A stretch of DNA of 64,000 nt, from contig DATDGX010000147.1 of assembly GCA_036521875.1 (NCBI GenBank), forward strand, positions 190 through 64,189. The letters run 5' to 3'. The notes beneath the pieces were generated by a model. It was not told the origin of the DNA. It was given only the letters and a program-made list of their open reading frames with translations, and did no database searches. Shown here piece by piece: positions 8,116-39,638 of the stretch. The stretch is from Candidatus Binataceae bacterium (GTDB lineage: Bacteria; Desulfobacterota; Binatia; Binatales; Binataceae). Each line of letters begins with the position of its first letter. Position 1 is the stretch's first letter. A program made the position numbers and the translations under genes.

Positions 8116-9389
8116 CACTCGGCAGCCTGTTTGCGGTCGCGGAAAAACCCGAATAGGTATTGCGCAACTCTGCGCATCTGGATTTCTTCCGAGCCCTCGG
8201 TGATGCGGTAGCGGCGATGATGCCGATAGATGTGCTCGAACGGCTTGTGGCGTGAATAGCCAATCGCGCCGTGCACCTGGATGGCGCGATCGGCCGCGTC
8301 GCAGACCAGCCGATTCGCGCGATAATTGCACATCGCAACCTTGTCCGAGAGTTTCAGCGCGACGTCGGGCTTGGACATCTGATCCATCTCCCACGCGGTC
8401 TTGTGGATCAGCGTCCGCAGCATCGCGGCTTCGGTGTGCAGCTCGACCAGCGGCCATTGAATCGCCTGGTTGGCGGAAAGTGGTTTGCCGAATGGCTTGC
8501 GCTGCTTGGCGTACTTCACGCTCTCGTCGATGCAGTACTGCGCCGCACCGAGCGACGACGCGGCCTGGCGGATGCGATTCTCATGCACGAAATGCTGCGC
8601 CACCGCGAGCCCATTCTCAGGATCGCCGAGGATCGCGTCGGCAGGCACGAACACCTCCGTCAGAGAGATGCGCGGATGGTCGGTCGGCATGTTGAAGGTC
8701 CACAGGTACTCCTCGATCTTGAAGCCGGCGCTGTCGGTCGGGACGATGAAACAGCTGATGCCGGTGGCGCCGCCGTCCCTGCCACTTGAGCGCGCGAAGA
8801 TGAAGTCGTGGGTAGCGACGTTGACGCCGGTGTTCCACATCTTCGCGCCGTTGATGCGCCATCCGTCGCCCTCGCGCACCGCGCGCGTCTCCATCCAGGT
8901 CGCGTCGGAGCCGTGGTTGGGCTCTGTCAAGCCGAACGCGATGCGCATCGAGCCGTCGAGAAGTTTCGGAATGAGTTCTTTCTTCTGTTGCGGCGTGCCG
9001 AAATCGCGGAACATCAGGACGGTCGGAAGGTTGCCCACGATCGAGCTTTCGTTCTGCAGATCGTTATGCAGCCCGAGGCCCTTCGCCGCCAGGTACTCGC
9101 GGATGATCGCCATCGCGAGGTTGGTGCCGTCCTTGCCGCCGTACTCCTTGGGCAGCGCGTAGCGGTAGTGTCCGGCCTTGTCGGCGCGGCGGCGCATTTC
9201 TCGCAACAGTTCCTCCCACTCATGGCGCGGCAGACCGCCGTTCTCGTAATCGGTGCGCGCCCATTCACGTCGATGATCGAAGAAGCGGATGTTGTCGTTC
9301 TCGCGCTCCAGCGGTTTGATTTCTTTTTCGATGAAGGCATCCAACTCGGCGAGATAGGCCTTGATGTCGGCCGGAATGTTGAAGTCCAC
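8115..9389 (-). CDS. Acyl-CoA dehydrogenase family protein
   Basis: 424 aa. ACAD N-terminal, middle (GLTEPNHGSDA) and C-terminal domains recognisable; catalytic region YRITEGSEEIQ. Confidence 0.9.
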   Translation of the reverse strand: MDFNIPADIKAYLAELDAFIEKEIKPLERENDNIRFFDHRREWARTDYENGGLPRHEWEELLREMRRRADKAGHYRYALPKEYGGKDGTNLAMAIIREYLAAKGLGLHNDLQNESSIVGNLPTVLMFRDFGTPQQKKELIPKLLDGSMRIAFGLTEPNHGSDATWMETRAVREGDGWRINGAKMWNTGVNVATHDFIFARSSGRDGGATGISCFIVPTDSAGFKIEEYLWTFNMPTDHPRISLTEVFVPADAILGDPENGLAVAQHFVHENRIRQAASSLGAAQYCIDESVKYAKQRKPFGKPLSANQAIQWPLVELHTEAAMLRTLIHKTAWEMDQMSKPDVALKLSDKVAMCNYRANRLVCDAADRAIQVHGAIGYSRHKPFEHIYRHHRRYRITEGSEEIQMRRVAQYLFGFFRDRKQAAE

Positions 9390-9469
9390 GGCGGTTCTCC
9401 TCTGGCGGTCCTTATCTGCGAGGCGTACCAGAGTGCGAATACGAACGGAAGCAAAAAGAGGCGAGCAAG

Positions 9470-9700
9470 ATGAAGGCGATCCAGTTCGATCGGCTCGGCG
9501 GGCCCGAGGTGATGCAGTTGCGCGAGGTCCCCGCGCCGGAACTCATTCCGGGAACCGTCCTCGTGCGCAATCACGTGATCGCGCTTAACTTCGGCGACAC
9601 GTTTTTCATTCGCGGCCGCTAGCTGGTGAAGCCCATGTTCCCGGACATTCGCGGGATGGAAGCCGCGGGCGCGATCGAGGCGCGGCTGCGGACGGGAAAA
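9470..9700 (+). pseudogene. Truncated quinone oxidoreductase / zinc-binding MDR-family gene remnant with in-frame amber stop
   Basis: MKAIQFDRLGGPEVMQLREVPAPELIPGTVLVRNHVIALNFGDTFFIRGR then TAG (9620-9622) where MDR proteins have a conserved Tyr. Same frame continues LVKPMFPDIRGMEAAGAIEA (the PxxxGxExAG motif) and then loses all similarity. No intact C-terminal Rossmann domain follows. Confidence 0.6.
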
Positions 9701-9832
9701 TCCTGCTGCTACCGAAGAGCGACCAGGTTGACAACGCGATCATATGAGCCCACTGACTATCCGGTCAGCGCACATCGTCGAGAGGCGAAGAATATGCGAA
9801 TAGCAACTTCGCGCGCTTTTATTCGCGCGAAC

Positions 9833-9895
9833 GCCTCGACGCGACTGCTGACCGGGCCTCGACGCGACTACTCAGTAGACCTCGACGAAACCAGG
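9833..9895. repeat. Imperfect tandem repeat (about 23 nt x 2.7) GCCTCGACGCGACTnnTnAnnnG
   Basis: gcctcgacgcgactgctgaccgg / gcctcgacgcgactactcagtag / acctcgacgaaaccagg, read directly. Lies in the degraded region after the qor remnant. Confidence 0.7.
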
Positions 9896-10021
9896 TAAAA
9901 TATTCCTCCCGAAAAACCACTGCTTCGTTAAATTTACCTTCCGAATCCTTTGCCGACGGCCCATGTTTGTTGGTTAATTTCCGGCATGTCCATTGCTCCC
10001 CTTCCCATTGAGGGCCTTATT

Positions 10022-10651
10022 ATGCAGAACGAACACCGGAATTTCAGGGGTCGTTTCCCTTCTCCGAAAGCTCTGATACTGGGCGGCGCGGCAATTCTTC
10101 TCTTGCCTCTCTCGCTCGTCGCGTGCAGTGGGGGGACGATCATGAACCCGCTTTCGTCGGCGCAGCCCGCGAGCCCGGGTCAGGTCGCGAGCGCGACTGT
10201 AGTACCCCAGAACGCGACCGGCGAAAAAATCCTGTTACACGGATTGCAGTTCAATCCGGATGGTTCGGTAATCCGACGCTCTTCCGATCCGATTCTTGAT
10301 TCGGCGGCTGACACCTTGAAGAGGCGGCCTGATACCAAGGTCTATGTCGATTCGTACTGCGATCCGACTGGCGGCAAGAAGGTGAACTCTCGACTATCGG
10401 GAGATCGCGCCATCGCCGTCGCGACTTATCTCCAACATAAAGGAATCGCTTCCGACCGCCTGGTTCCGCGCGGATTCGGCGCCACGGATTTTGTCGCGAG
10501 CAATGCCACCGCCGACGGGCGTGAGCAGAATCGCCGCGTCGAGCTGAAGCTGGTGCCGATCAGCCAACAGGCGAGTGCATCGAGTCCGAACGATTCGCTG
10601 TCGCATCGATTGTACTCACGCCTGTTCGGCAGTTCGTCTCAGGGTTCGTAA
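10022..10651 (+). CDS. OmpA-family lipoprotein
   Basis: Start ATG 10022 (MQNEHRNF...); signal peptide with lipobox LVACSG; C-terminal OmpA_C-like domain (YVDSYCDPTGGKKVNSRLSGDRA..V, NRRVEL). Confidence 0.8.
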   Translation: MQNEHRNFRGRFPSPKALILGGAAILLLPLSLVACSGGTIMNPLSSAQPASPGQVASATVVPQNATGEKILLHGLQFNPDGSVIRRSSDPILDSAADTLKRRPDTKVYVDSYCDPTGGKKVNSRLSGDRAIAVATYLQHKGIASDRLVPRGFGATDFVASNATADGREQNRRVELKLVPISQQASASSPNDSLSHRLYSRLFGSSSQGS

Positions 10652-25459: not shown

Positions 25460-26479
25460 ATGCAAATGGGAATGGTCGGTCTCGGAAGAATGGGCGCGAA
25501 CATGGTGCGGCGTCTGCTGCGCGATGGTCACGAGTGCGTGGTGTTCGACGTCACTCCCGCCGCAGTTGCGGAGCTGGCGAAGGAGAAGGCGGTGGGCGCG
25601 TCGTCGCTCGATGACTTCGCCGCGAAGTTGAAAAAGCCGCGCGTCGCGTGGATGATGGTGCCGGCGGCGGTGGTCGAGCAGACCGTCGCGGACCTGTCGT
25701 CACGATTCGAGCGCGGCGACATCATCGTCGACGGCGGCAACTCGTATTACATCGACGACATCCGCCGAGCCGAGGCGCTCAAGGCCAAGGAGATTCACTA
25801 CGTCGATTCGGGCACCAGCGGGGGAGTGTGGGGACTCGAGCGCGGCTTCTGCCAGATGATCGGCGGCGAGCCGGAAGTAGTGAAGCATCTCGGTCCGATT
25901 TTTGCGACGCTCGCACCGCCGCTTGATTCCGCGCCGCGCACCGCGGGCCGCGAAAAAGTCAAAGGCAGCACCGCGGAGCATGGCTATCTTCATTGCGGCC
26001 CCAACGGCGCCGGCCACTTCGTCAAAATGGTCCACAATGGAATCGAGTACGGGATCATGGCGGCGTACGCGGAAGGGCTGAACATCCTTCGCCACGCCAA
26101 CGTCGGCAAGCAGACCAATGCCGCCGTCGATGCGGAGACTACGCCGCTCAGAAATCCGAAGCTGTACCAGTACGATTTCAACCTGACCGACATCGCCGAG
26201 GTGTGGCGCCGTGGCAGCGTGATCGCGTCGTGGCTGCTCGACCTGACGGCCGACGCGCTGCTCGGCGATCCGGAGCTGAAGAAGTTTGCCGGCCGGGTGT
26301 CGGATTCGGGCGAGGGCCGCTGGACGATCGATGCGGCGATCGACGAGGGTGTGCCAGCGCACGTGCTGACTGCGGCGCTCTACGAGCGGTTCGGATCGCG
26401 CGGCGCCGCCGACTTCGCCGACAAGCTGCTGTCCGCGATGCGCTACGAGTTCGGCGGCCATCTCGAGAAGAAGGCCTGA
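25460..26479 (+). CDS. gnd: 6-phosphogluconate dehydrogenase, decarboxylating (short Gnd-like form)
   Basis: [16 protein letters not shown]ossmann N-terminus; [23 protein letters not shown] 6PGD signature. 339 aa, the short-form length. Confidence 0.85.
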
Positions 26480-26492
26480 GCGGGTTTCGGCG

Positions 26493-28028
26493 ATGTCGAG
26501 TCAAGACACCTTCCAGCCTCCAGCGAACGTGGAGGGAAAGCCTGGCGATCCTTGCGTGTTCGTGGTTTTTGGCGCGACCGGCGACCTGACCAAGCGCCTG
26601 CTGATGCCGTCGCTATACAACCTGCTCGCCGCCAGGCTGATGCCGAAGGAGTTCGCGATCATCGGCGTCAGCAACGCGCAGATGAGCTTCGAGGATTTTC
26701 GCAAACAGCTGGGCAAGGAGATCCAGGAATTCGCAACTACCAAGGTCGACCCCGAGTTGTGGAAGTGGTTCGACCAGCGGATCACTTACATGGAGGGCGA
26801 CTTCAAGGACCCCGCGACCTATCAGAAGCTGAAGACGCAGCTCGCGGCGATCGACAAGCAGCAGGGCACGCCGGGCAACTACCTGTTCTACACCGCGGTG
26901 TCGCCGAGCTTTTTCGGCGAGATCGTAAAGCAGCTAGCCGCCGCCAAGCTCACCGACGAACCTAAAGGCTGCTGGCGGCGCGTGATTATCGAGAAGCCGT
27001 TCGGCCACGATCTCGACTCGGCGCTCGCGCTCAACCGCGAGATCGGCGAGTGCCTGCGCGAGGACCAGACTTTCCGCATCGATCATTACCTGGGCAAGGA
27101 AACCGTTCAGAACATCATGGCGTTCCGTTTCGGCAACGGCATTTTCGAACCGGTATGGGACCGCCGCTATATTAATCACGTTCAGATAACGGTGGCGGAG
27201 ACGGTCGGCGTGGAACATCGCGGCGGCTACTACGAGACTTCGGGTGCGCTCCGCGACATGGTTCCTAATCACATACTGCAGTTGGTGGCACTGACCGCGA
27301 TGGAGCCGCCGATCTCGTTCGACTCCGAGCCGGTGCGCGACGAGAAGACCAAGCTGCTGCGCGCGATTCGTCCGCTCCAACCGGAAGAGGTGCCGTCGTG
27401 GGCGGTGCGCGGACAATACGGGCTGGGCACGATGGGCAAGGAGCAAGTGCCGGGTTACCGGTCCGAGCCGCAGGTCAATCCGCAGTCGCCGGTCGAGACC
27501 TACGTCGCGCTGAAACTTGCGATCGACAACTGGCGATGGGAAGGCGTGCCGTTCTATCTGCGCACCGGGAAGCGGATGGCGAAGCGGGTCACCGAGATCG
27601 CGATCCGGTTCAAGGCGCCGCCATTGCTGCTCTTCCGCCAGACTGCCGTCAAACAAATCGAGCAGAACGAGCTGGTGCTGCATATCCAGCCCGACGAGGG
27701 AATTTCGTTGGGCTTCAGCGCCAAGATACCGGGACCGGTGGTCAAGCTCGAGACTGTCGACATGAATTTCAAGTACGCCGATTATTTCGGCGCCCCACCG
27801 AGCATCGGATACGAGACGCTGCTGCTCGATTGCATGATCGGCGACCCGACGTTGTTCCAGCGCGCGGATACCGTCGACGCGGGATGGCGCGTGGTCGACC
27901 CGATCCTCGATGCGTGGAAGGCTAACCCGCCCAAAGATTTTCCGAACTATCCGGCCGGCTCATGGGGACCGCGCGCCGCCGACGAATTGCTGGAGCGCGA
28001 TCGCCGCAAGTGGCGCGATCTCAGATAA
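26493..28028 (+). CDS. zwf: Glucose-6-phosphate 1-dehydrogenase
   Basis: [21 protein letters not shown] and RIDHYLGKE active-site motif; 511 aa; 14 nt after gnd. Confidence 0.9.
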
Positions 28029-28117
28029 TCAGGTAGGCACGGCATCGAGGCCGAACTGCGCGGTCAGTTTCGCGCGCGCGGTATAGGTACAAAAGCGGTC
28101 GGATATAGTATGAAAGG

Positions 28118-28753
28118 ATGAACTTGCGAATCACCTTTTTGCTCGGAGTGGTTCTGGTCGGAGGCGTATTGATGCGAAGTTCAGTGAGCGCCGCGGAGAA
28201 CGGGTCCGCCAATGGCGCATTGGCGAAAGCGACTTTTGCCGGCGGCTGCTTCTGGTGCATGCAGCCCGCTTTCGACGGAATTCCCGGCGTGGTGTCGACC
28301 CGAGTCGGGTATACCGGCGGACAGAAAGTGAATCCGACTTACGACGAGGTCTGCAGCGGCACTACTGGACATGCCGAGGCACTCGAGCTGACCTACGATC
28401 CGAAAAAGATAAGCTATCGCAAATTGCTCGACATCTTCTGGCACAATATCGATCCGACCGTCCGCGACCAGCAATTTTGCGACGAAGGAACTCAGTATCG
28501 CACCGCGATTTTTTTCCACGACGCGGAGCAACAGCGCGAAGCGCTCGCATCAGAGAAGGAACTGGAGAAGACCAAACCGTTCAAGGATCCGATCGTCACC
28601 GAGATCGTTCCGGCCTCGACCTTCTACACCGCCGAGGACTATCACCAGCAGTATTGCCGCACGCACAAGATCGCCTACGGCATGTATCGATACGGATGCG
28701 GCCGCGATCAGCGGCTGCGCCAACTGTGGGGCGCGTCGGCCGGCACCCACTGA
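28118..28753 (+). CDS. msrA: Peptide-methionine (S)-S-oxide reductase MsrA, with signal peptide
   Basis: GGCFWCMQPAFDGIPGV..GYTGG active-site motif; N-terminal hydrophobic leader suggests a periplasmic or secreted enzyme. Confidence 0.9.
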   Translation: MNLRITFLLGVVLVGGVLMRSSVSAAENGSANGALAKATFAGGCFWCMQPAFDGIPGVVSTRVGYTGGQKVNPTYDEVCSGTTGHAEALELTYDPKKISYRKLLDIFWHNIDPTVRDQQFCDEGTQYRTAIFFHDAEQQREALASEKELEKTKPFKDPIVTEIVPASTFYTAEDYHQQYCRTHKIAYGMYRYGCGRDQRLRQLWGASAGTH

Positions 28754-31865: not shown

Positions 31866-33005
31866 TCAGTAGTGGTTGAGTCGCGCGAGGCGATCGGCGT
31901 GGAAGTTCGCGTCGCCGAACAGTTCCTGTCCGACGCGGACGCGCTTCATGAACAGGCCCACGTCGAATTCGTCGGTCATCCCGATGCCGCCGTGCATTTG
32001 GACCGCCTCCTGCACTGCGAGCGTGGCGCTGCCGCCGGCGCGCGCTTTTGCCAACGAGACGACCGCGCCTGCCGTGTCGAACGACTCGTCGAGAGTCTGC
32101 AGCGCCTTCAACACCGCGGAGCGGGTGACTTCCAGCTCGCAGTAGAGGTGAGCCGCGCGATGCTGTAGTGCCTGGAATTCGCCGATCGCTTTTCCGAATT
32201 GCTTGCGCTCCCGCAGATAGCCCACCGTTCTGCCGAACGCCTCTTCGCTGGCTCCCACCAGCTCCGCCGCGACCGCGGCACGGCCCACGTTCAGCGTGCC
32301 CTCCAGGATGCTCCAGCCCGCGTCGACCTTGCCGAGCACCGCGTCGGCGCCGGCGCTGACATTTTCGAACTTGATGCGCGCCGCGTTGTGAGTATCGACC
32401 ATCGGCGTGCGCTCTGCGCTGATCCCTTTCGTTTTCGAATCTAGAACGAACAGAGTGATGCCTTTGTTGTCGCCGGACGCACCCGCGGTTCGCGCCGCGA
32501 CGATCAGGATATCGGCGACGTGACCGTCGACGACGAAGGTCTTGGCCCCGTTCAGCGTGAATCCGTTTCCGGTGCGGGTCGCGGTCAGCGCGGTTTTTTC
32601 GGGGCGATGCTTCGCGGTTTCGTCGATCGCGAGCGCTGCGATCAGTTCGCCGCTAACGATTCGCGGCAGATACTTTTTCTTTTGCGCGTCGCTGCCGCCG
32701 CGCGAGATCGCACTGGCGGCAAGAAGAGCCGTCGACAGGAACGGCGAGGGCGCAAGCGTGCGCCCGAGCTCTTCCATCACCACGCCGGCTTCGACGTGGC
32801 CGAGTCCGAGTCCGCCGTACTCCTGCGGGACCAAGATGCCCGCCCAGCCCATCTCGACAAAGTCCTTCCACAGTTGGCGCGAGAAGCCATCCGGGTCGCG
32901 AGTGTCGCGGAGCTGGCGCAGGTGCGCGATCGGTGCGTTCTTGCCGAGAAAGCCACGCGCGTTGTCGCGCAGCATCGCTTGTTCGTCGGTGAGGACCAGT
33001 GCCAT
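31866..33005 (-). CDS. Acyl-CoA dehydrogenase family protein
   Basis: 379 aa with ACAD N, middle and C domains (IGMTDEFDVGLFMKR...). Confidence 0.85.
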   Translation of the reverse strand: MALVLTDEQAMLRDNARGFLGKNAPIAHLRQLRDTRDPDGFSRQLWKDFVEMGWAGILVPQEYGGLGLGHVEAGVVMEELGRTLAPSPFLSTALLAASAISRGGSDAQKKKYLPRIVSGELIAALAIDETAKHRPEKTALTATRTGNGFTLNGAKTFVVDGHVADILIVAARTAGASGDNKGITLFVLDSKTKGISAERTPMVDTHNAARIKFENVSAGADAVLGKVDAGWSILEGTLNVGRAAVAAELVGASEEAFGRTVGYLRERKQFGKAIGEFQALQHRAAHLYCELEVTRSAVLKALQTLDESFDTAGAVVSLAKARAGGSATLAVQEAVQMHGGIGMTDEFDVGLFMKRVRVGQELFGDANFHADRLARLNHY

Positions 33006-33075: not shown

Positions 33076-34257
33076 TCAGGCGCCCGGCAGATTGAGTATC
33101 CGCTTGGCCACGATGTTGAGCTGGACCTCACTGGTCCCGCCTTCGATCGAATTCGCCTTCGAGCGCAGCCACGCGCGCGCCTGATAGCCATTGCGCGAGC
33201 GTTTGCCTTCCCACTCCAGCGCGTCCGAGCCGCCCGCCGCCATCACCAGCTCGAGCCGCCGCTTGTTGAGCTCGGTGCCGTAGTATTTCAGCAGCGACGA
33301 CACCGCTGGATGCGCCTGCCCAACCTTGGCCATGTCGCCAACGCGCTCCATCGTCAGCCGGAATGCCTGCGCGTCGATCTCCAGTGCCGCAATCTGGCCG
33401 CGCAACACCGTGTCGGCGAGCATCCCATTCTCGGTTCCCATCGTCTCCGCTGCGATCTTTCCGAGCGAGCGATTGTCCGCCGTGCTACCCATGCCGCCGA
33501 TCATGTCGCGCTCATGTGTGAGCAGGTACTTCGCGATTTCCCATCCCTTGTTTAGCGTGCCGATCAGGTTGGCCTTCGGCACCAGCACGTCGTCGAAGAA
33601 GGTCTGGCAGAAAGGCGACGCGCCCGAGATGAGCGTGATCGGCTTGGTCGAGACGCCGGCGCTCTCCATGTCGAAAAGCACGAAGCTGATGCCTTCATGT
33701 TTCGGCGCGTTGGGGTCGGTGCGCACCAGGCAGAAAATCCAGTCCGCCTTGTCCGCGTACGAGGTCCAGATCTTCGATCCGTTGACGAGGAAGTTGTCGC
33801 CCTTGTCTTCCGCGCGCGTTTGCAGCGAGGCGAGGTCGGAGCCCGCACCCGGTTCCGAGTAGCCCTGGCACCAGCGGATTTCGCCGCGCGCGATTTTGGG
33901 CAGATGCTCGCGCTTTTGCGCCTCCGAACCGTACTTGAGCAGCGCAGGCCCCAGCATCCAGATGCCGAAGCTGTCGAGCGGCGAGCGGCAGCCCAGCGCG
34001 CGCATCTCCTGGCGCAGAATTTTCGTTTCGTCACGCGACAGTCCACCGCCACCAAACTCACGCGGCCACTCCGGCACCGTCCATCCCTTCTCCGCCATGC
34101 GCTCGAGCCACAATCGCTGGGCATCGGACTTGAACTTCCAATTGCGTCCGCCCCAGCAGGTGTCGTCCTCGCTCTGCGTGGGCCTGCGCATCTCTGGCGG
34201 GCAATTCGCTTCGAGCCAGGCTCGTGTTTCTTTGCGGAAGGTTTCCAGGTCGCTCAT
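33076..34257 (-). CDS. Acyl-CoA dehydrogenase family protein
   Basis: Start ATG at 34255-34257 (MSDLETFRKETRAWL); CQGYSEPGAGSD motif; pairs with the downstream ACAD. Confidence 0.85.
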   Translation of the reverse strand: MSDLETFRKETRAWLEANCPPEMRRPTQSEDDTCWGGRNWKFKSDAQRLWLERMAEKGWTVPEWPREFGGGGLSRDETKILRQEMRALGCRSPLDSFGIWMLGPALLKYGSEAQKREHLPKIARGEIRWCQGYSEPGAGSDLASLQTRAEDKGDNFLVNGSKIWTSYADKADWIFCLVRTDPNAPKHEGISFVLFDMESAGVSTKPITLISGASPFCQTFFDDVLVPKANLIGTLNKGWEIAKYLLTHERDMIGGMGSTADNRSLGKIAAETMGTENGMLADTVLRGQIAALEIDAQAFRLTMERVGDMAKVGQAHPAVSSLLKYYGTELNKRRLELVMAAGGSDALEWEGKRSRNGYQARAWLRSKANSIEGGTSEVQLNIVAKRILNLPGA

Positions 34258-34325: not shown

Positions 34326-35021
34326 CTAAACGCCGGCGTACCAGTCGTAACCGAGGTTTTCCCAGTAGCCGCCCGTGCGCTGCGACAGGAAATTTACCTC
34401 GGTGAGGTACTTGACGGTCTTGTATCCGAGTTTGACCGGCGAGTAGAGACGCAGCGGTGCGCCGTGATCCGGGTATAACGCCCGCCCGTTCATGCCGTAC
34501 GCGAGGATAGTCTGCGGATGCATCGCGCTTTCGATGTCCCACGATGAGAAGTAGCCGGCGTCGAACGATCGGAACTCTGCGTAGCGCGCCTGCGCGCTGA
34601 CGCCCGCTATTTTCGCCACTTCGCTCAGCCGCACGCCGTGCCATGCCGCGACCGCCGACCATCCTTCCACGCAGTGATGCCGGATGCGCATATCAGTCCG
34701 CGGCATCCGCTTCAGTTGCTCGAGCGTGAGCGTGGCCGGCCGCGCGACCATGCCGCCAATCTTGAGTTCCCAGTCCGGGGGCGCGAACGGCATCGTATCG
34801 GAAATAAAATAGCTCGGGAAATCACTTTCCGGCGTTAGCTCCGACTTGGGCGGCTCGGGAGCGAGCCGGGTCGGCGAGAACAGAAAGCGGTCGAAGCGCT
34901 CGTTCCAGCGGCTCATCGCGCCAAGAAAAAGTGAAGTTGGATGGTCGCATCCAGCCACCAGCGTGGCCGCCGCGAGTCCCAGCAGAAGCTTCCGCCTGCT
35001 TATAGTTACGAGCTTAGCCAT
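34326..35021 (-). CDS. Molybdopterin-dependent oxidoreductase, sulfite-oxidase family (YedY/MsrP-like catalytic subunit) with Tat-type signal
   Basis: SRRKLLLGLAAATLVAG twin-Arg leader; WELKIGGMVARPATLTLEQL and RIRHHCVEGWSAVAAWHGVRL match the Mo-domain core of YedY-like enzymes. Confidence 0.75.
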   Translation of the reverse strand: MAKLVTISRRKLLLGLAAATLVAGCDHPTSLFLGAMSRWNERFDRFLFSPTRLAPEPPKSELTPESDFPSYFISDTMPFAPPDWELKIGGMVARPATLTLEQLKRMPRTDMRIRHHCVEGWSAVAAWHGVRLSEVAKIAGVSAQARYAEFRSFDAGYFSSWDIESAMHPQTILAYGMNGRALYPDHGAPLRLYSPVKLGYKTVKYLTEVNFLSQRTGGYWENLGYDWYAGV

Positions 35022-35970
35022 ACCGTCCTTTCAAGTCTTTGTGGGCGCCGGGATTCGGCGCGAATAGATCGACGTGCTGCGCGACAAAGTCGCGCACTGT
35101 CATCGCGGGCCCTCCTGTGAGCTCCTCAACATCGTGTGTAATGCGATCGTAGCGGTTGGCGGCGTGGAGGCGCGCCATCGTCAACAGATGCTCGCGGACA
35201 TGCTCCGGCAGCTTGCGCTTGCGAAGCTCCTGGTCACGCCACTGCTCCAACGGCACGTCGACGTAGCTGATGGTTCTGCCGAGTGCGCGTGAATATTCCG
35301 CAGCGACCTCGATCATGTCCTGAGATTTTGGTCCCGTCAGTTCATTGACCTTGCCGATATGAGCGGCCGGGCTGGCCAAAATGACCGCGATCACTTCCGC
35401 CACATCCTGAACGGCAACTGGAGACGTTCGGCCGGCGCCGAATGGCAGCCGGATCGTGGCGTCTCTGGCAATCGATTCGGCAGCCCAAGCCAGAAAAAAA
35501 GGGTTTTCGAGGAACACCGTCGGACGGACATGCACCACCGGGAGTCCTGACCAGTTCAGGATTTGCTCGGCTAGCAGATGCTGCCGCTGCTGCGGAGAGT
35601 CCGTCATCTTGGCCATGGTCATTTGCGACACGGTCATCTGTGAGATGTTGACGAAAACTTCCAAGTCACCGCGCTCACGCGCAACCGCCGCCGCGATGAC
35701 GGTCGCCTCCAAATAGGGCGCCGACACGCTCATGCCGAAATAGATGCGCCGACAGCCGGCCAAAGCACGCGCGACATCCGGAACACGGGTCAGATCGCCG
35801 ACTACAACCTCCGCACCGGTCGCGCGCAGCGCCTCGGCGCGTTCATCTTCGCGAAGGACCAGCGCACGGACGGCGAGACCGCGATGACGAAGCAACTCCA
35901 CGACATTGCGACCTACGCCGCCTACGCGACCGGCGGCACCGGTGACCAGGATAGGGCTCTCAATTGGCAT
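35014..35970 (-). CDS. NmrA-like / NAD(P)H-binding atypical SDR
   Basis: ILVTGAAGRVGG Rossmann motif; 318 aa; overlaps the downstream gene by 8 nt. Confidence 0.75.
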   Translation of the reverse strand: MPIESPILVTGAAGRVGGVGRNVVELLRHRGLAVRALVLREDERAEALRATGAEVVVGDLTRVPDVARALAGCRRIYFGMSVSAPYLEATVIAAAVARERGDLEVFVNISQMTVSQMTMAKMTDSPQQRQHLLAEQILNWSGLPVVHVRPTVFLENPFFLAWAAESIARDATIRLPFGAGRTSPVAVQDVAEVIAVILASPAAHIGKVNELTGPKSQDMIEVAAEYSRALGRTISYVDVPLEQWRDQELRKRKLPEHVREHLLTMARLHAANRYDRITHDVEELTGGPAMTVRDFVAQHVDLFAPNPGAHKDLKGRYG

Positions 35971-35979
35971 GCGATGATC

Positions 35980-36693
35980 TCAGCCGCGTTTTCCGCCGCC
36001 GATCATGTCGAGGATGGTCCGCGGATGAAGCGCGACCAGCACCAGATGGGTCGCAGTGAAGAGTCCGAGCGCTACCAGCGCCGACAGATGCACGACGCGC
36101 GCGAAGTCATAGCCGCCGAGCAGAGCCGTGAGCCAATACAATTGCACTGGCTTGTAAATTGCGAGGCCCGACGCGACCACCACGATTCCGAACACGATCG
36201 CTGAAGTGTAAGCGAGCCGCTGCAGGCCGTTGTAAAAGTCCTCGGGCGGCGGGGTCTTCCGCATCCGCAGATAGTAAGCGAACATCGCGATTGCTCCCGC
36301 AGTGTCGCGGTGCGGAAGGAACGCGCGCCGGTGCCATTGTCCGCTGACAAGCTGGTAAGCGAGATACGCGGCGCCATTGAGGATCAGGAACCACGCGATC
36401 GCAAAATGCCAGTGACGCGCGCCCGCGAGCCATCCGCCGAAGCGCAACGATGTCGGCGGTGGCACTCCTTGAAACGGATACCATTTGTACAATCCGCCGC
36501 GCGGTCCCATCGAGGGATACGCGACCAGGATCTGCAGACCGCTTCCCGCCATGATCAGAAGCAGCGGTATGTTGATCCAATGAGCGAGCCGAATTGGAAG
36601 CGGATGGGTGAGCGGAAACTTGAGCGGACGGGTCAGCACACGGGTCGGCCGTCCCCGCCGCGGAGGCCGTTCAATGCTCGATGCTGATGCCAT
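35980..36693 (-). CDS. Cytochrome b561-type (Ni_hydr_CYTB-like) di-heme membrane protein
   Basis: IRLAHWINIPLLLIM with conserved His, four TM helices, second His region HLSALVALGL..THLVLV; 10 nt upstream of the NmrA-like gene. Confidence 0.65.
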   Translation of the reverse strand: MASASSIERPPRRGRPTRVLTRPLKFPLTHPLPIRLAHWINIPLLLIMAGSGLQILVAYPSMGPRGGLYKWYPFQGVPPPTSLRFGGWLAGARHWHFAIAWFLILNGAAYLAYQLVSGQWHRRAFLPHRDTAGAIAMFAYYLRMRKTPPPEDFYNGLQRLAYTSAIVFGIVVVASGLAIYKPVQLYWLTALLGGYDFARVVHLSALVALGLFTATHLVLVALHPRTILDMIGGGKRG

Positions 36694-36776
36694 CGCTAAT
36701 ACTCTGTTGATTACTCAGTGCGCGCTCGCTGATTTGATGACGTCGATGGACGGACTCACTATTGTCGTGGAACTTA

Positions 36777-37103
36777 CTATTGACTCATGCCCTGAGCTTT
36801 GCCGCCGTTCATGATGTGCCCGTCCATCATGATCATTTGCCCGTCGTGCAGATGCGTATCGGGGCCGTACTTGAATTTGACGGTTCCGTCAAGCAGCACG
36901 CGGGTTCCGTCTGACATGGTCATTTCATGATCCATCGGGCCGGCTGGCTTACCCATTTTCATCATCATCATTTTGCCGCCGCTCATCATTACTCCGTCCA
37001 TGTCCGCGGCTATCGCCACAGATGGCACCGCGATGATCGCGATCGCTATCCCGAGCGAAAGCAGGGCGGCTATCGGGAACGTGGCAAATTCGCGCCCCTT
37101 CAT
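36777..37103 (-). CDS. Secreted Met-rich (and His-containing) small protein
   Basis: Signal peptide MKGREFATFPIAALLSLGIAIAIIAVPSVAIA; mature 75 aa contains 17 Met (MMSGGKMMMMKMGKPAGPMDHEMTM..MIMMDGHIM). Confidence 0.55.
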   Translation of the reverse strand: MKGREFATFPIAALLSLGIAIAIIAVPSVAIAADMDGVMMSGGKMMMMKMGKPAGPMDHEMTMSDGTRVLLDGTVKFKYGPDTHLHDGQMIMMDGHIMNGGKAQGMSQ

Positions 37104-37115
37104 TTGCGCATCCCC

Positions 37116-38723
37116 TTAGCGGCCGCTGGGGACCGGAGATGCGCGGACGGCCCGCTCGAAGGCCCAGCTACGAATGTGATTGATCTGTTCCTTCATGGTG
37201 CGCGCCAGCGGCACAACCTCACCGGCGGCGAGGAAGAGATCCTGTTCGGTCACCTCATGATCCTTCAGCCGCGCCTTGGTCAAAGCCGATACGACAGCCT
37301 GCTCGATCTCGGCGCCGGTCCAGCCGTTGGTGTAAGCCGCCAATCGTTCCAGGTTGAACTTGGCAGCATCCATTCCGCGGCGGCTGAGGTGGATCTTCAG
37401 GATCTCGATCCGCTCAGCAACCAGCGGCAGATCAACGAAAAAGACTTCGTCGAAACGTCCTTTGCGAATCATCTCGGCGGGGAGAAGGTCGATCCGGTTT
37501 GCGGTGGCGGCGACAAAGAGCCCGCGCGCCTTCTCCTGCATCCAGGTCAGAAAGAAGGCAAAGATCCTGCCCTGCTCGCCGCCCGATTCCGCCGACGTAA
37601 CTCCCATCTCAATCTCGTCGAACCAGACCACCGCGGGCGCCATGTCCTCGAGCGTCTTGCACGCCTGGACGAACGCTCCCTCGGGCTGCCCGTGCCTGCC
37701 GGAGAAGACTTCGATCATGTCGATTCGATAGAGAGGAAGCTCGAAGTGCGAGGCGATGGCTTTGACGCAGAGGCTTTTGCCGCAGCCCGGGATGCCCATG
37801 ACGAGGACGCCTTTGGGGACTATGTCGGTGCTCAGGCTCTCGCGGAGCTGAAATAGTTTACGACGCTCCAGCAGCCACTGCTTGAGCCGCTCGAGGCCGC
37901 CGACCTCCCCGATGTTGGTGCTGTCGGCAACGTATTCGATGACGCCGCCGCGGTTGACGAGGAGCCGCTTTTCCTCGAGCAGAAATGGCAGTGACTCGGC
38001 ACTGAGACTCCGACCCGCCGCCAGCGCACGGCGCACCGCGTGGCGCGCCTCCTGGAGTGTGACTCCCTGCAGAGCGCGCGCGAGCTGGTACAGGGTTGCC
38101 TCGCTCACGTCGCTGCGTAAGCCGGGCGTCGCGAGTTGTTGAGCCTCATCGCGCAGGAACTCGAACAACTCGATGAGATCAGGCGGCCGCAGCTCGAGAT
38201 ACAAGACGTCCCGCTCGATCTCCTCAGGAACGAATCGCACCGGAGAACTGATGACCACGAACTTCCGTTGATCGAGACAGGTTTCGTACAGATCTCGAAA
38301 ACGGCGCCTGACTTCCGGAGACTCACGCAGCGGCTCGTGAAAGTCTTTGAGATGGAAGATGGCGGCGTCCTTGTGGTCGGCTATGAAGTCCAAAGCCTCG
38401 CGAGGATCGAGAGTGCCGGTCTCGGCTTCTCCGTCCTCGCGTAGCAATCCCTTCGTGAGGCTCCAGGTCCAAACGGGCACCGGTGCGGACGCGTTCAGCG
38501 CGCGGCCGACCTCGCGCAGTACCCTTCCGATTCGATGCTCTTCCGCGGAGCGTACGTAGGTGAGCGGCCGGCCCGACTGGAAGACCTCGCGCAGCATCTT
38601 TGCCGCGCGGCTCTCAACCGGCTCGGGTTTGGTAGAATCGTCCATAGAAGAATCGCGCGAGCTGTGAGCCTGCGCTCGACTCGCCGGCCTCGGCGTCGGC
38701 ATCGGGCAGACCTCCTTCGGCAA
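37116..38723 (-). CDS. AAA+ ATPase (classic clade) with uncharacterised N-terminal domain of about 280 aa
   Basis: Walker A GIPGCGKS, Walker B VVWFDEIE, sensor-2/Arg finger region IRKGRFDEVFFVDLP. N-terminal half has no recognisable family. Start uncertain (38723 or MDDSTKPE about 38645). Confidence 0.8.
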   Translation of the reverse strand: MPKEVCPMPTPRPASRAQAHSSRDSSMDDSTKPEPVESRAAKMLREVFQSGRPLTYVRSAEEHRIGRVLREVGRALNASAPVPVWTWSLTKGLLREDGEAETGTLDPREALDFIADHKDAAIFHLKDFHEPLRESPEVRRRFRDLYETCLDQRKFVVISSPVRFVPEEIERDVLYLELRPPDLIELFEFLRDEAQQLATPGLRSDVSEATLYQLARALQGVTLQEARHAVRRALAAGRSLSAESLPFLLEEKRLLVNRGGVIEYVADSTNIGEVGGLERLKQWLLERRKLFQLRESLSTDIVPKGVLVMGIPGCGKSLCVKAIASHFELPLYRIDMIEVFSGRHGQPEGAFVQACKTLEDMAPAVVWFDEIEMGVTSAESGGEQGRIFAFFLTWMQEKARGLFVAATANRIDLLPAEMIRKGRFDEVFFVDLPLVAERIEILKIHLSRRGMDAAKFNLERLAAYTNGWTGAEIEQAVVSALTKARLKDHEVTEQDLFLAAGEVVPLARTMKEQINHIRSWAFERAVRASPVPSGR

Positions 38724-38762
38724 ACCTCAGATGTCTCGGTTCAGATGATAGCGGTCGCGAGT

Positions 38763-39443
38763 CTACCGGTCACGCGCCGGGACCGGGAGCCACGCGCCAG
38801 ACTCGTCCGTGCAGCGAATGAATCCAAAGACATTCGGCTCCCGGGCGCGCGTCCAATCGACCTCCTGCATTTGGCCGCGATTGACCAACACGCGCCAGAC
38901 GCTCGCCGGGTCGGCGCTGAAGATAACCTCGGATTTGGCCGGCGCGACGTACCACGAGCCCTCCTGGATCTCGGCCTGGAGCTGATCCGGAGTCCATTGC
39001 GCGCGGCCGAGGATGACGCGCAGGTCTTTGTCGGGCGCGGAATTTTTCAGCAGCTCGCCGATCGAATTGGTGTCGGCGCTGGCGTAAACGTCGTCGAACA
39101 GGTGGGTCGTCTTGTCCGACGATTGCGAGGCGCGGATGAGCAGCGCGGGTTGATCAGGATCCACAGGACCGCCGAGGTACGCCGTGGCAGCCGGGCTTTT
39201 GAATGCGGGCGCATTGGAGAACAACCGCTGCACCGGCACGGCGGTCGGTTTGTTGATGATGACGCCGACGACGATCGGAAGCCGCCCGGCCGGCAGTATC
39301 AGGATAACCGACTGCGCGAAGATGGAGTCGGTCAGGTCGCGCGTCGCGACCAGAAAGTAGGGCTCGGCGCTCGCACTGCGCGCCTCGCGCGGGGTCATCA
39401 GAGTGGCCGCGATCGCAGCGCACGCCACGACGATACACATCAT
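38763..39443 (-). CDS. YqgE/AlgH (DUF179, UPF0301) family protein with an unusual hydrophobic N-terminal leader
   Basis: YFLVATRDLTDSIFAQSVILI...GVIINKP...GGPVDPD core; start placed at MMCIVVACAAIAATLMTP, which looks like a signal peptide. Confidence 0.65.
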   Translation of the reverse strand: MMCIVVACAAIAATLMTPREARSASAEPYFLVATRDLTDSIFAQSVILILPAGRLPIVVGVIINKPTAVPVQRLFSNAPAFKSPAATAYLGGPVDPDQPALLIRASQSSDKTTHLFDDVYASADTNSIGELLKNSAPDKDLRVILGRAQWTPDQLQAEIQEGSWYVAPAKSEVIFSADPASVWRVLVNRGQMQEVDWTRAREPNVFGFIRCTDESGAWLPVPARDR

Positions 39444-39638
39444 CAGGGCGCCGGTGGCGCGCCGGATTCTGCGCGCGCCCGCCGCGCGACCAATTCTGCA
39501 TCTTATACCGAACACATCCACGGCCGCAGCGCTTCTAGAGATCGACGAAGCTTCGTCAAGCCTGCACCCATCCGGCGAGCGTCGCAAGAATCCTGCGATT
39601 GGCGCACCGGGCAATCGCGCGCTGGTGCAATCAGTCAA

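Follow-up and report, generated by a model that had tools for sequence, protein, structure and literature searches.

Modules that combine a secreted methionine (Met)-rich protein, a membrane cytochrome b and a small molybdoenzyme are already known. Exposure to chlorite or hypochlorite leaves the Azospira protein MrpX oxidised, and over time it reverts to the reduced form in vivo (PMC4436054), Brucella bcrXQP is induced by hypochlorous acid (HOCl) and contributes to HOCl resistance (PMC8315932), and in uropathogenic Escherichia coli (UPEC) mutants of c3566/c3567 grow more poorly with tert-butyl hydroperoxide, C3568 having been called a MrpX homologue (PMC8550376). Here we analyse a locus of this kind from the metagenome-assembled genome of an uncultured soil member of the Binataceae, encoded in a 64-kb stretch of DNA (the window) where genes for a Met-rich DUF6799 protein, a cytochrome b, an NmrA-like protein and a YedY-like molybdenum (Mo) enzyme follow one another on the minus strand. 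The four open reading frames (ORFs) match exactly the interval 34326-37103 given in the original prediction, which had been made from the sequence and proposed a sacrificial-methionine defence against oxidants (Table 1). New in this locus and its relatives are DUF6799 as a non-homologous Met-rich partner, the clade-specific insertion of the NmrA-like gene, the occurrence in Binatia and, at 19 loci, the joining of a gene for the bufferin BufA2 to the operon.

We read the locus as the Binataceae version of a periplasmic Met redox-cycling and repair module in which the DUF6799 protein would serve as a recyclable oxidant sink, and give this reading a probability of roughly 60%. The di-heme PF01292 cytochrome b would draw electrons from the membrane quinol pool and hand them to the lipid-anchored YedY-like Mo enzyme on the periplasmic face, which in turn would reduce Met-sulfoxide in periplasmic proteins. 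The DUF6799 protein, a small beta domain with ~21% Met, would be the likely preferred substrate, being oxidised by HOCl, chloramines or reactive oxygen species and then regenerated. What the analysis establishes is which genes are present, the families to which they belong, how well their linkage is conserved and what surrounds their homologues; the electron path, the Met-sulfoxide substrate and the sink role are proposed by analogy with Azospira YedY1Z1-MrpX, Brucella BcrXQP, UPEC C3566-C3568 and E. coli MsrPQ.

A scan of one genome per GTDB species yielded 80 other loci, mostly from metagenome-assembled genomes of Binataceae/Binatus or from uncultured delta-proteobacteria, with Mo enzymes 63-77% identical to that of the window; the counts refer to loci and not to independent events, and in a few cases two paralogous loci come from the same genome. 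At every one of these loci (80/80) the cytochrome b gene immediately precedes the Mo gene. A DUF6799 gene, detected with a profile of the window protein together with its relatives, lies directly upstream of cytochrome b in 52 of the 78 assessable loci and 2 kb upstream in one more, and the Met-rich ORF is in this way retained in orthologous operons, in keeping with the original prediction. As no NmrA-like gene is inserted at any of the 80 loci, the conserved unit is (DUF6799)-cytochrome b-Mo.

The window protein matches DUF6799 (PF20606) with 71.6 bits against a gathering threshold of 26.8, as a single domain covering profile positions 2-63 of 63. It is the sole ORF of at least 60 residues with above 8% Met in the window, and its Met content is therefore no compositional accident. 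It is indeed Met-rich and predicted to be secreted, although the 17 Met that had been ascribed to a mature protein of 75 residues are those of the full 108 residues and include the initiator; the predicted mature part of ~75 residues holds 16 (~21%). Alignment with relatives revealed a variable hydrophobic N-terminus followed by a conserved domain start (A-A-D-M-D-G), which points to signal-peptide cleavage after residue 33. An AlphaFold2 (AF2) model is all-beta, with predicted local distance difference test (pLDDT) values of 92-94 over residues 35-100. Kinship with MrpX, which the original prediction cited as a precedent, did not hold, since the protein has neither a match in NCBIfam, TIGR02953 included, nor BLASTP similarity to MXKDX proteins; on that model, which has a cutoff of 41 bits, the Met-rich partners from Rhizobium and Caballeronia score 65.6 and 57.3 bits and the one from E. 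coli just below it (36.2). Judged by sequence, the window protein is thus an analogue and not a homologue of the MXKDX/MrpX proteins.

An exhaustive profile search returned about 1850 cluster representatives of the PF20606 family, of which many carry 2-13 domains in tandem. In the 148 that score best, Met content is bimodal and ranges from 1% to 27% (69 at 10% or above, 55 below 5%), with a median of 14.6% for proteins of single-domain size. Since Met content varies so widely, the fold does not need methionine, and the Binataceae branch beside the cytochrome b-Mo pair is a Met-loaded version of it. Single-domain members outside the close Binataceae set were found on contigs of 1.3-1.4 kb, on which the neighbourhood is not readable. 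Two multi-domain Met-rich members, seen at three loci, are monocistronic and lie near ferritin-like and esterase genes with no Mo enzyme adjacent. At L090:5001-5750 and L092:5001-5762 (P0183 and P0177), very Met-rich three-domain proteins stand alone between long intergenic regions, in the vicinity of Ferritin_2, DUF2383, carboxylesterase, general-stress PNPOx-like and flavin mononucleotide (FMN) reductase genes and without Mo enzymes. A full-text literature search for DUF6799 found no paper, and the reading proposed here gives the Met-rich branch of the family its first function open to testing.

The strongest comparative argument for Met content as the functional property comes from the proteins that accompany the same reductase pair. 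MXKDX proteins, DUF6799 and the type found at locus L079 are unrelated Met-rich secreted proteins encoded beside it, and this suggests that selection acts on Met-richness itself. In different phyla, two such unrelated Met-rich proteins at the least, and probably three, have been recruited next to cytochrome b-Mo pairs, and these recruitments add comparative evidence to a sacrificial-methionine model that has hitherto rested on Azospira MrpX, Brucella BcrX and UPEC C3568. The L079 protein (L079:4795-5127) is secreted, rich in Met, His, Ser and Thr (110 residues, 12 Met, HMTDS repeats) and without a significant Pfam match; its gene occupies the usual DUF6799 position upstream of cytochrome b-Mo.

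A protein search of plasmid records produced full-length Mo homologues at 37-43% identity from Rhizobium, Methylobacterium, Microvirga, Caballeronia, Burkholderia, Variovorax, Sphingomonas, a cyanobacterium and E. coli/Klebsiella plasmids. All homologues that were read share the twin-arginine pair and lipobox, an RHxCVEGWS motif, a GGYWE..GY.W..G C-terminus and an adjacent gene annotated as 'cytochrome b/b6 domain'. The pairs lie beside genes for MXKDX peptides, ECF sigma factors with NrsF, msrA/msrB or ccdA. In Rhizobium acidisoli, genes for an extracytoplasmic function (ECF) sigma factor and NrsF are divergent from MXKDX-cytochrome b-Mo, and in Caballeronia a sigma factor and DUF1109 are divergent from cytochrome b-Mo-MXKDX. 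Burkholderia contaminans has the order cytochrome b-Mo-73-residue Met-rich protein-DUF1109, and Methylobacterium encodes sigma-NrsF-msrB-msrA-cytochrome b-Mo on one strand. The cyanobacterium Kovacikia has ccdA-msrA-cytochrome b-Mo, with an MsrA whose hydrophobic N-terminus suggests that it is exported, and Sphingomonas has thioredoxin-ccdA-DUF1223-cytochrome b-Mo. E. coli carries a histidine kinase and a response regulator divergent from cytochrome b-Mo-Met-rich protein (79-80 residues), both on plasmids and on the chromosome of UPEC 536, where the module lies directly upstream of hlyCA (L112:4476-6115) and corresponds to the c3564/c3565 and divergent c3566-c3568-hlyCABD locus. A module of cytochrome b, small Mo enzyme and Met-rich peptide is present in 353 of 5426 complete E. 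coli genomes, either on the chromosome, where the copy of UPEC 536 is the one inspected, or on plasmids as a paralogue of ~74% DNA identity (L096 on pVR50B, IncF); RefSeq gives the three genes generic names only.

The Mo enzyme itself begins with SRRKLLLGLAAATLVAG-C-D, a twin-arginine motif (SRRKLLL) followed by a lipobox (LVAG-C25-D26), and R9, R10, G24, C25 and D26 are invariant in an alignment of 22 sequences; it is therefore predicted to be a lipoprotein exported by the twin-arginine translocation (Tat) pathway. The same RR and (T/A/S)GC(D/S) pattern is found in the homologues from E. coli, Rhizobium, Caballeronia, Microvirga and Kovacikia. The Mo-ligand Cys117 lies in RHHCVEGWS and aligns with RMRCVEAWS of YedY, CVE(G/A)WS being the YedY type and not the sulfite-oxidase type. 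The best match in the PDB is E. coli YedY (1xdq, 5e-21), with sulfite oxidases at 1e-10 or worse, and NCBIfam models for sulfite dehydrogenases score far below their cutoffs (SorA 62.8 vs 600, SoxC 61.3 vs 420, SorT 36 vs 570). Furthermore, the protein ends directly after the Mo domain without a dimerisation domain, and its partner is a cytochrome b and not a cytochrome c. NCBIfam scores, PDB matches and a neighbour-joining tree thus agree in placing it nearer to MsrP/YedY than to sulfite dehydrogenases. The original prediction of a Tat-exported YedY/MsrP-type enzyme stands as regards the Tat motif and the nearest relatives, but the enzyme is a predicted lipoprotein and not a soluble YedY. It belongs with small Mo lipoproteins from E. 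coli, Rhizobium, Caballeronia, Burkholderia, Microvirga, Methylobacterium, Sphingomonas and Kovacikia, which match it over their full length with 144-170 bits, compared with 88-90 for true MsrP and 75 for sulfite oxidase, and which cluster with it in the tree. By sequence, we place the window enzyme outside MsrP, in a widespread subfamily that is sister to it. An AF2 model of the Mo enzyme built from 22 close homologues had a mean pLDDT of 37.

The cytochrome b has His38, His96, His202 and His215 in conserved columns and is predicted to bind two hemes. It shares 36-44% identity with most partners of the Mo homologues, including those from E. coli, Caballeronia, Microvirga and Methylobacterium, and 29-33% with those from Rhizobium and Sphingomonas; in E. 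coli and Rhizobium the partner was confirmed as a PF01292 protein. Mo enzyme and cytochrome b are both homologous over their full length to those of proteobacterial pairs, at 34-44% identity. No BLASTP similarity was detected between the window cytochrome b and MsrQ, which in E. coli belongs to PF01794. Comparison thus bears out the sacrificial-Met and Met-sulfoxide idea of the original prediction well, but not its claim that the cytochrome b wiring is undescribed, because a PF01292 cytochrome b, a small Mo enzyme and a Met-rich peptide make up the UPEC c3566-c3568 locus (PMC8550376) and the gene order also matches the Rhizobium counterpart of Brucella bcrXQP (PMC8315932). Judging from gene order, the Brucella and Azospira membrane subunits would be equivalent to the window PF01292 cytochrome b.

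Several observations weigh against a Met repair module with DUF6799 as oxidant sink. The Mo enzyme scores 109.1 bits on the MsrP equivalog model NF003767, below its cutoff of 207, a threshold that the c3567-like E. coli homologue (81 bits) and the Rhizobium homologue (98 bits) do not reach either, and the region around Asn45/Tyr47 of YedY, which forms the substrate pocket, aligns uncleanly with it. The Met residues of DUF6799 occupy conserved positions in a folded domain, leaving room for a specific binding role, and other members of the family are Met-poor or encoded away from Mo enzymes. Apart from L079, the remaining loci, about one third, have no Met-rich ORF within ~6 kb, and the Met-rich partner is therefore facultative. 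Finally, genes for an ECF16 sigma factor with NrsF or for two-component systems are absent both from the genes annotated at 19.8-50 kb of the window and from the recurring flanking gene clusters of the 80 loci, and a GTAAC-N15-19-CGAA (ECF16/SigF) promoter was found upstream of the module neither in the window nor at the 80 loci. A generic promoter scan upstream performed no better than on shuffled sequence, and a terminator scan gave nothing usable.

The NmrA-like protein carries an N-terminal Rossmann motif (VTGAAGRVG), has no signal peptide and matches PF05368 with 72.6 bits and PF13460 with 68.8 bits. The original prediction of an inserted NmrA-like reductase proved real but confined to one small clade: the arrangement, present in L001, L083 and L084, is limited to the window, identical short contigs and a sister species at ~86% DNA identity, which keeps the full order DUF179-AAA-DUF6799-cytochrome b-NmrA-Mo followed by two acyl-CoA dehydrogenases. 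Between the two species, dN/dS is 0.17 for the NmrA-like gene, 0.145 for cytochrome b and 0.126 for the Mo gene at a dS of ~0.5, which indicates that the NmrA-like gene of the window clade is under purifying selection. We regard it as a later, clade-specific addition kept under selection. In the long contig L083, frameshifts split both the AAA ATPase and the NmrA-like gene (L083:7435-7989 and 9249-10188), and both are intact in the short-read contig L084; because the AAA gene is broken there too, the split is probably an assembly error and not pseudogenisation.

The weakest step of the proposed scheme is that the NmrA-like protein would act as a cytoplasmic NAD(P)H-dependent reductase helping to feed the chain, for example by quinone reduction. 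The gene might equally be a passenger, that is, a widespread stand-alone reductase expressed with the operon that supplies no electrons to the Mo enzyme, and we consider an integrated NAD(P)H-dependent input and a passenger under its own selection about equally likely. Absence from 80/80 other Binataceae modules suits a passenger, as do homologues at 55-62% identity in Streptomyces, Rhizobium, Nostoc and Caballeronia, which in the plasmid records stand alone, away from cytochrome b-Mo pairs. The nearest solved structure is the ketoreductase SimC7 (2.5e-19), and the solved relatives are polyketide ketoreductases and dye reductases, which again favours this explanation. An integrated role is suggested instead by the tight junctions (9 nt separate the gene from cytochrome b, and it overlaps the Mo gene by 8 nt), by intact copies in two species with a dN/dS near those of cytochrome b and Mo, and by the precedent of Fre, a cytoplasmic NAD(P)H-dependent partner that reportedly feeds MsrQ. 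A further gene of the NmrA type was noted 3 kb away from the Caballeronia module.

Copper offers a second alternative, in which DUF6799 would be a periplasmic Met/His protein binding Cu(I) (or silver), its thioethers kept reduced by the cytochrome b-Mo pair under copper stress, and not a general oxidant sink. This is suggested by the folded domain with its positionally conserved Met and frequent His (MDHEM, MDGHxM), by the Met/His-rich L079 protein in the same position and by a gene neighbour. At 19 of the 80 loci, a secreted six-cysteine protein of 92-99 residues (two copies are truncated) is encoded directly upstream of DUF6799 or, at L032 and L066, directly upstream of cytochrome b instead, and its 77.8 bits on the NCBIfam model for BufA2 bufferins exceed the cutoff of 60. 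An upstream k-mer enrichment considered as a regulatory motif was rejected, the signal being the BufA2 coding sequence itself; in L044, the 4.5 kb upstream of BufA2 contain no MNIO (DUF692) gene. Bufferins are copper-chelating ribosomally synthesised and post-translationally modified peptides, and the copper-responsive SigF/NrsF regulon of Caulobacter unites YedY with two bufferin operons (PMC3511200, PMC11626156), so that the BufA2 linkage physically ties the module to the copper-stress (bufferin) branch of the proteobacterial SigF regulon. Copper, moreover, induces E. coli MsrPQ, which repairs CusF, a Met-rich copper chaperone (PMC9302797). Against the copper explanation, the His residues of DUF6799 vary within the subfamily, the recurring flanking clusters of the 80 loci include no cop, cus or pco genes, and the window has no BufA2 gene. 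DUF6799 shows no detectable sequence or fold similarity to the known periplasmic Met-rich copper proteins (CusF, CopK, PcoE/SilE type), and a CopK/CusF-like identity was rejected on both grounds. Taken together, we consider a primary role in copper binding unlikely.

A small-molecule substrate for the Mo enzyme (a different S- or N-oxide, or sulfite oxidised with cytochrome b as acceptor), with the Met-rich protein as an unrelated neighbour, is highly unlikely: its score below the MsrP equivalog threshold, the missing MsrP insert and C-terminal extension, the first report of YedY as a weak dimethyl sulfoxide/trimethylamine N-oxide reductase (PMC4228395) and the third of loci without a Met-rich gene would fit, but sulfite dehydrogenase models score 36-63 bits against cutoffs of 420-600, neither a dimerisation domain nor a cytochrome c partner is present, and in several phyla the pair recurs beside msrA/msrB, Met-rich peptides and oxidant-sensing regulators.

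Beyond the redox-cycling module with DUF6799 as oxidant sink, we can sketch a bolder extension that we regard as quite unlikely, namely that DUF6799 is a second, independent folded 'methionine sponge' recycled by the cytochrome b-Mo pair, for which the window clade has additionally recruited the NmrA-like protein as an NAD(P)H reductase; such a sponge might also buffer Cu(I). If true, electrons would pass from NAD(P)H through the NmrA-like protein and then quinone or heme b to the Mo enzyme and protein Met-sulfoxide, giving a three-component transmembrane reductase that runs on cytoplasmic reducing power and is analogous to Fre-MsrQ-MsrP but built of unrelated parts.

Table 1 Features of the module, its neighbours in the window and BufA2 genes at related Binataceae loci (L, locus).
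Feature	Position	Strand or orientation	Basis
Secreted DUF6799 Met-rich protein, 108 aa	36777-37103	minus	PF20606, 71.6 bits
Predicted Sec signal peptide, residues 1-33 of the Met-rich protein, ending ...VAIA	37005-37103	minus	read from sequence
Membrane cytochrome b, 237 aa	35980-36693	minus	PF01292 Ni_hydr_CYTB (cytochrome b561), 75.6 bits
NmrA-like NAD(P)H-binding protein (atypical short-chain dehydrogenase/reductase), 318 aa	35014-35970	minus	PF05368 and PF13460
Small sulfite-oxidase-fold YedY-like molybdoenzyme, 231 aa, c3567/BcrP-like subfamily	34326-35021	minus	PF00174 Oxidored_molyb, 131 bits
Tat signal (S-R-R-K-L-L-L) and lipobox (L-V-A-G-C25), Asp at +2	34947-35021	minus	22-sequence alignment
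AAA ATPase and DUF179/AlgH-like protein, directly upstream	37116-39638	minus	
Two acyl-CoA dehydrogenases	33076-34257 and 31866-33005	same orientation as module	
gnd-zwf-msrA cluster	25460-28753	plus	
msrA, signal-peptide-like N-terminus	28118-28753	plus	
Gly-rich ORF, 157 aa	31337-31810	plus	
BufA2 gene	L044:4563-4841; also L008, L010, L011, L013, L016-L019, L022, L024, L027, L028		
BufA2 gene, further loci	L032, L033, L035, L036, L049, L066		

The wider neighbourhood of the module in the window departs from the original prediction in several respects (Table 1). The Met-rich gene had been placed at the head of the operon; it starts only 12 nt past the stop codon of the AAA ATPase gene, however, and therefore may not head the transcript. 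This upstream protein has an FtsH/CDC48-like ATPase domain, and a protease domain was not found in it. The two acyl-CoA dehydrogenase genes do continue downstream in the same orientation, as had been noted, but they are not conserved neighbours: homologues occur near 3 of the 80 modules, on the opposite strand and several kb away. An AAA ATPase gene neighbours none of the 80, and this gene, DUF179 and the two acyl-CoA dehydrogenases, which flank the module only in the clade of the window, were rejected as parts of the system. The msrA gene described as nearby is present in the window but 5.6 kb off and on the opposite strand, behind the genes for 6-phosphogluconate dehydrogenase (gnd) and glucose-6-phosphate dehydrogenase (zwf); its product begins with MNLRITFLLGVVLVGGVLMRSSVSAAE..., which suggests an exported MsrA encoded behind NADPH-generating enzymes. 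The second protein taken to be Gly/Met-rich and secreted is Gly-rich (30 Gly) but has only 9 Met in 157 residues. Its conservation in the sister species stops at residue 25 and it has no match in Pfam or NCBIfam, and the ORF may be fast-evolving or mis-called.

At the other Binataceae loci, the module often has CMD/AhpD-like proteins or DUF6306/DUF2383 ferritin-like four-helix proteins in its flanks (L044:3321-3926, minus strand; L003:4661-5086, plus strand), which are putative antioxidant or iron-related proteins. At two loci (L006:4765-5253 and L029:4716-5210) a secreted thioredoxin-like protein (weak Thioredoxin_8 match, SNCWNT) is encoded directly upstream of cytochrome b, in L006 between it and DUF6799.

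Among the described systems, UPEC c3566-c3568 is one of the closest to the window, having a Mo enzyme of the same subfamily (147 bits over the full length) with Tat motif and lipobox, a PF01292 cytochrome b (98 bits) and a small secreted Met-rich protein in the operon. The Met-rich protein of UPEC, however, is Lys/Asp-rich and MXKDX-like and is encoded downstream, whereas that of the window is a DUF6799 beta domain encoded upstream; and in UPEC, genes for a histidine kinase and a response regulator adjoin the module, which is joined to hlyCABD, whereas the window has no adjacent regulator and an inserted NmrA-like gene. The SigF/NrsF-YedY1Z1-MrpX system of Azospira suillum and the BcrS/AbcS-BcrXQP system of Brucella melitensis follow the same logic of a Met-rich protein, a heme partner and a Mo reductase, and the Rhizobium acidisoli locus combines the gene order of bcrS-abcS and the divergent bcrXQP with the cytochrome b and Mo families of the window. 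Azospira and Brucella place their modules under an ECF16 sigma factor and NrsF, for which neither genes nor promoter motifs were found here, and their Met-rich proteins, MrpX and BcrX, belong to the MXKDX repeat family (TIGR02953) and have no relation to the DUF6799 protein.

E. coli MsrP-MsrQ has in common with the window a sulfite-oxidase-fold Mo domain, the Cys in CVE(A/G)WS, Tat export and a membrane b-heme donor. In contrast to MsrP with its ~330 residues, the window enzyme has 231 and is without an insert of ~18 residues and a C-terminal extension of ~55 residues; it is predicted to be lipid-anchored and is paired with a PF01292 cytochrome, whereas the MsrQ partner in E. coli belongs to PF01794. 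The UPEC system referred to as 'MsrPQ-like' is accordingly not MsrPQ but a member of a distinct subfamily of lipoprotein Mo enzymes with PF01292 cytochromes b, and the Brucella system described in the same terms probably belongs there too. This subfamily forms an unnamed, broad sister family of MsrPQ, which current annotation and reviews do not separate from it.

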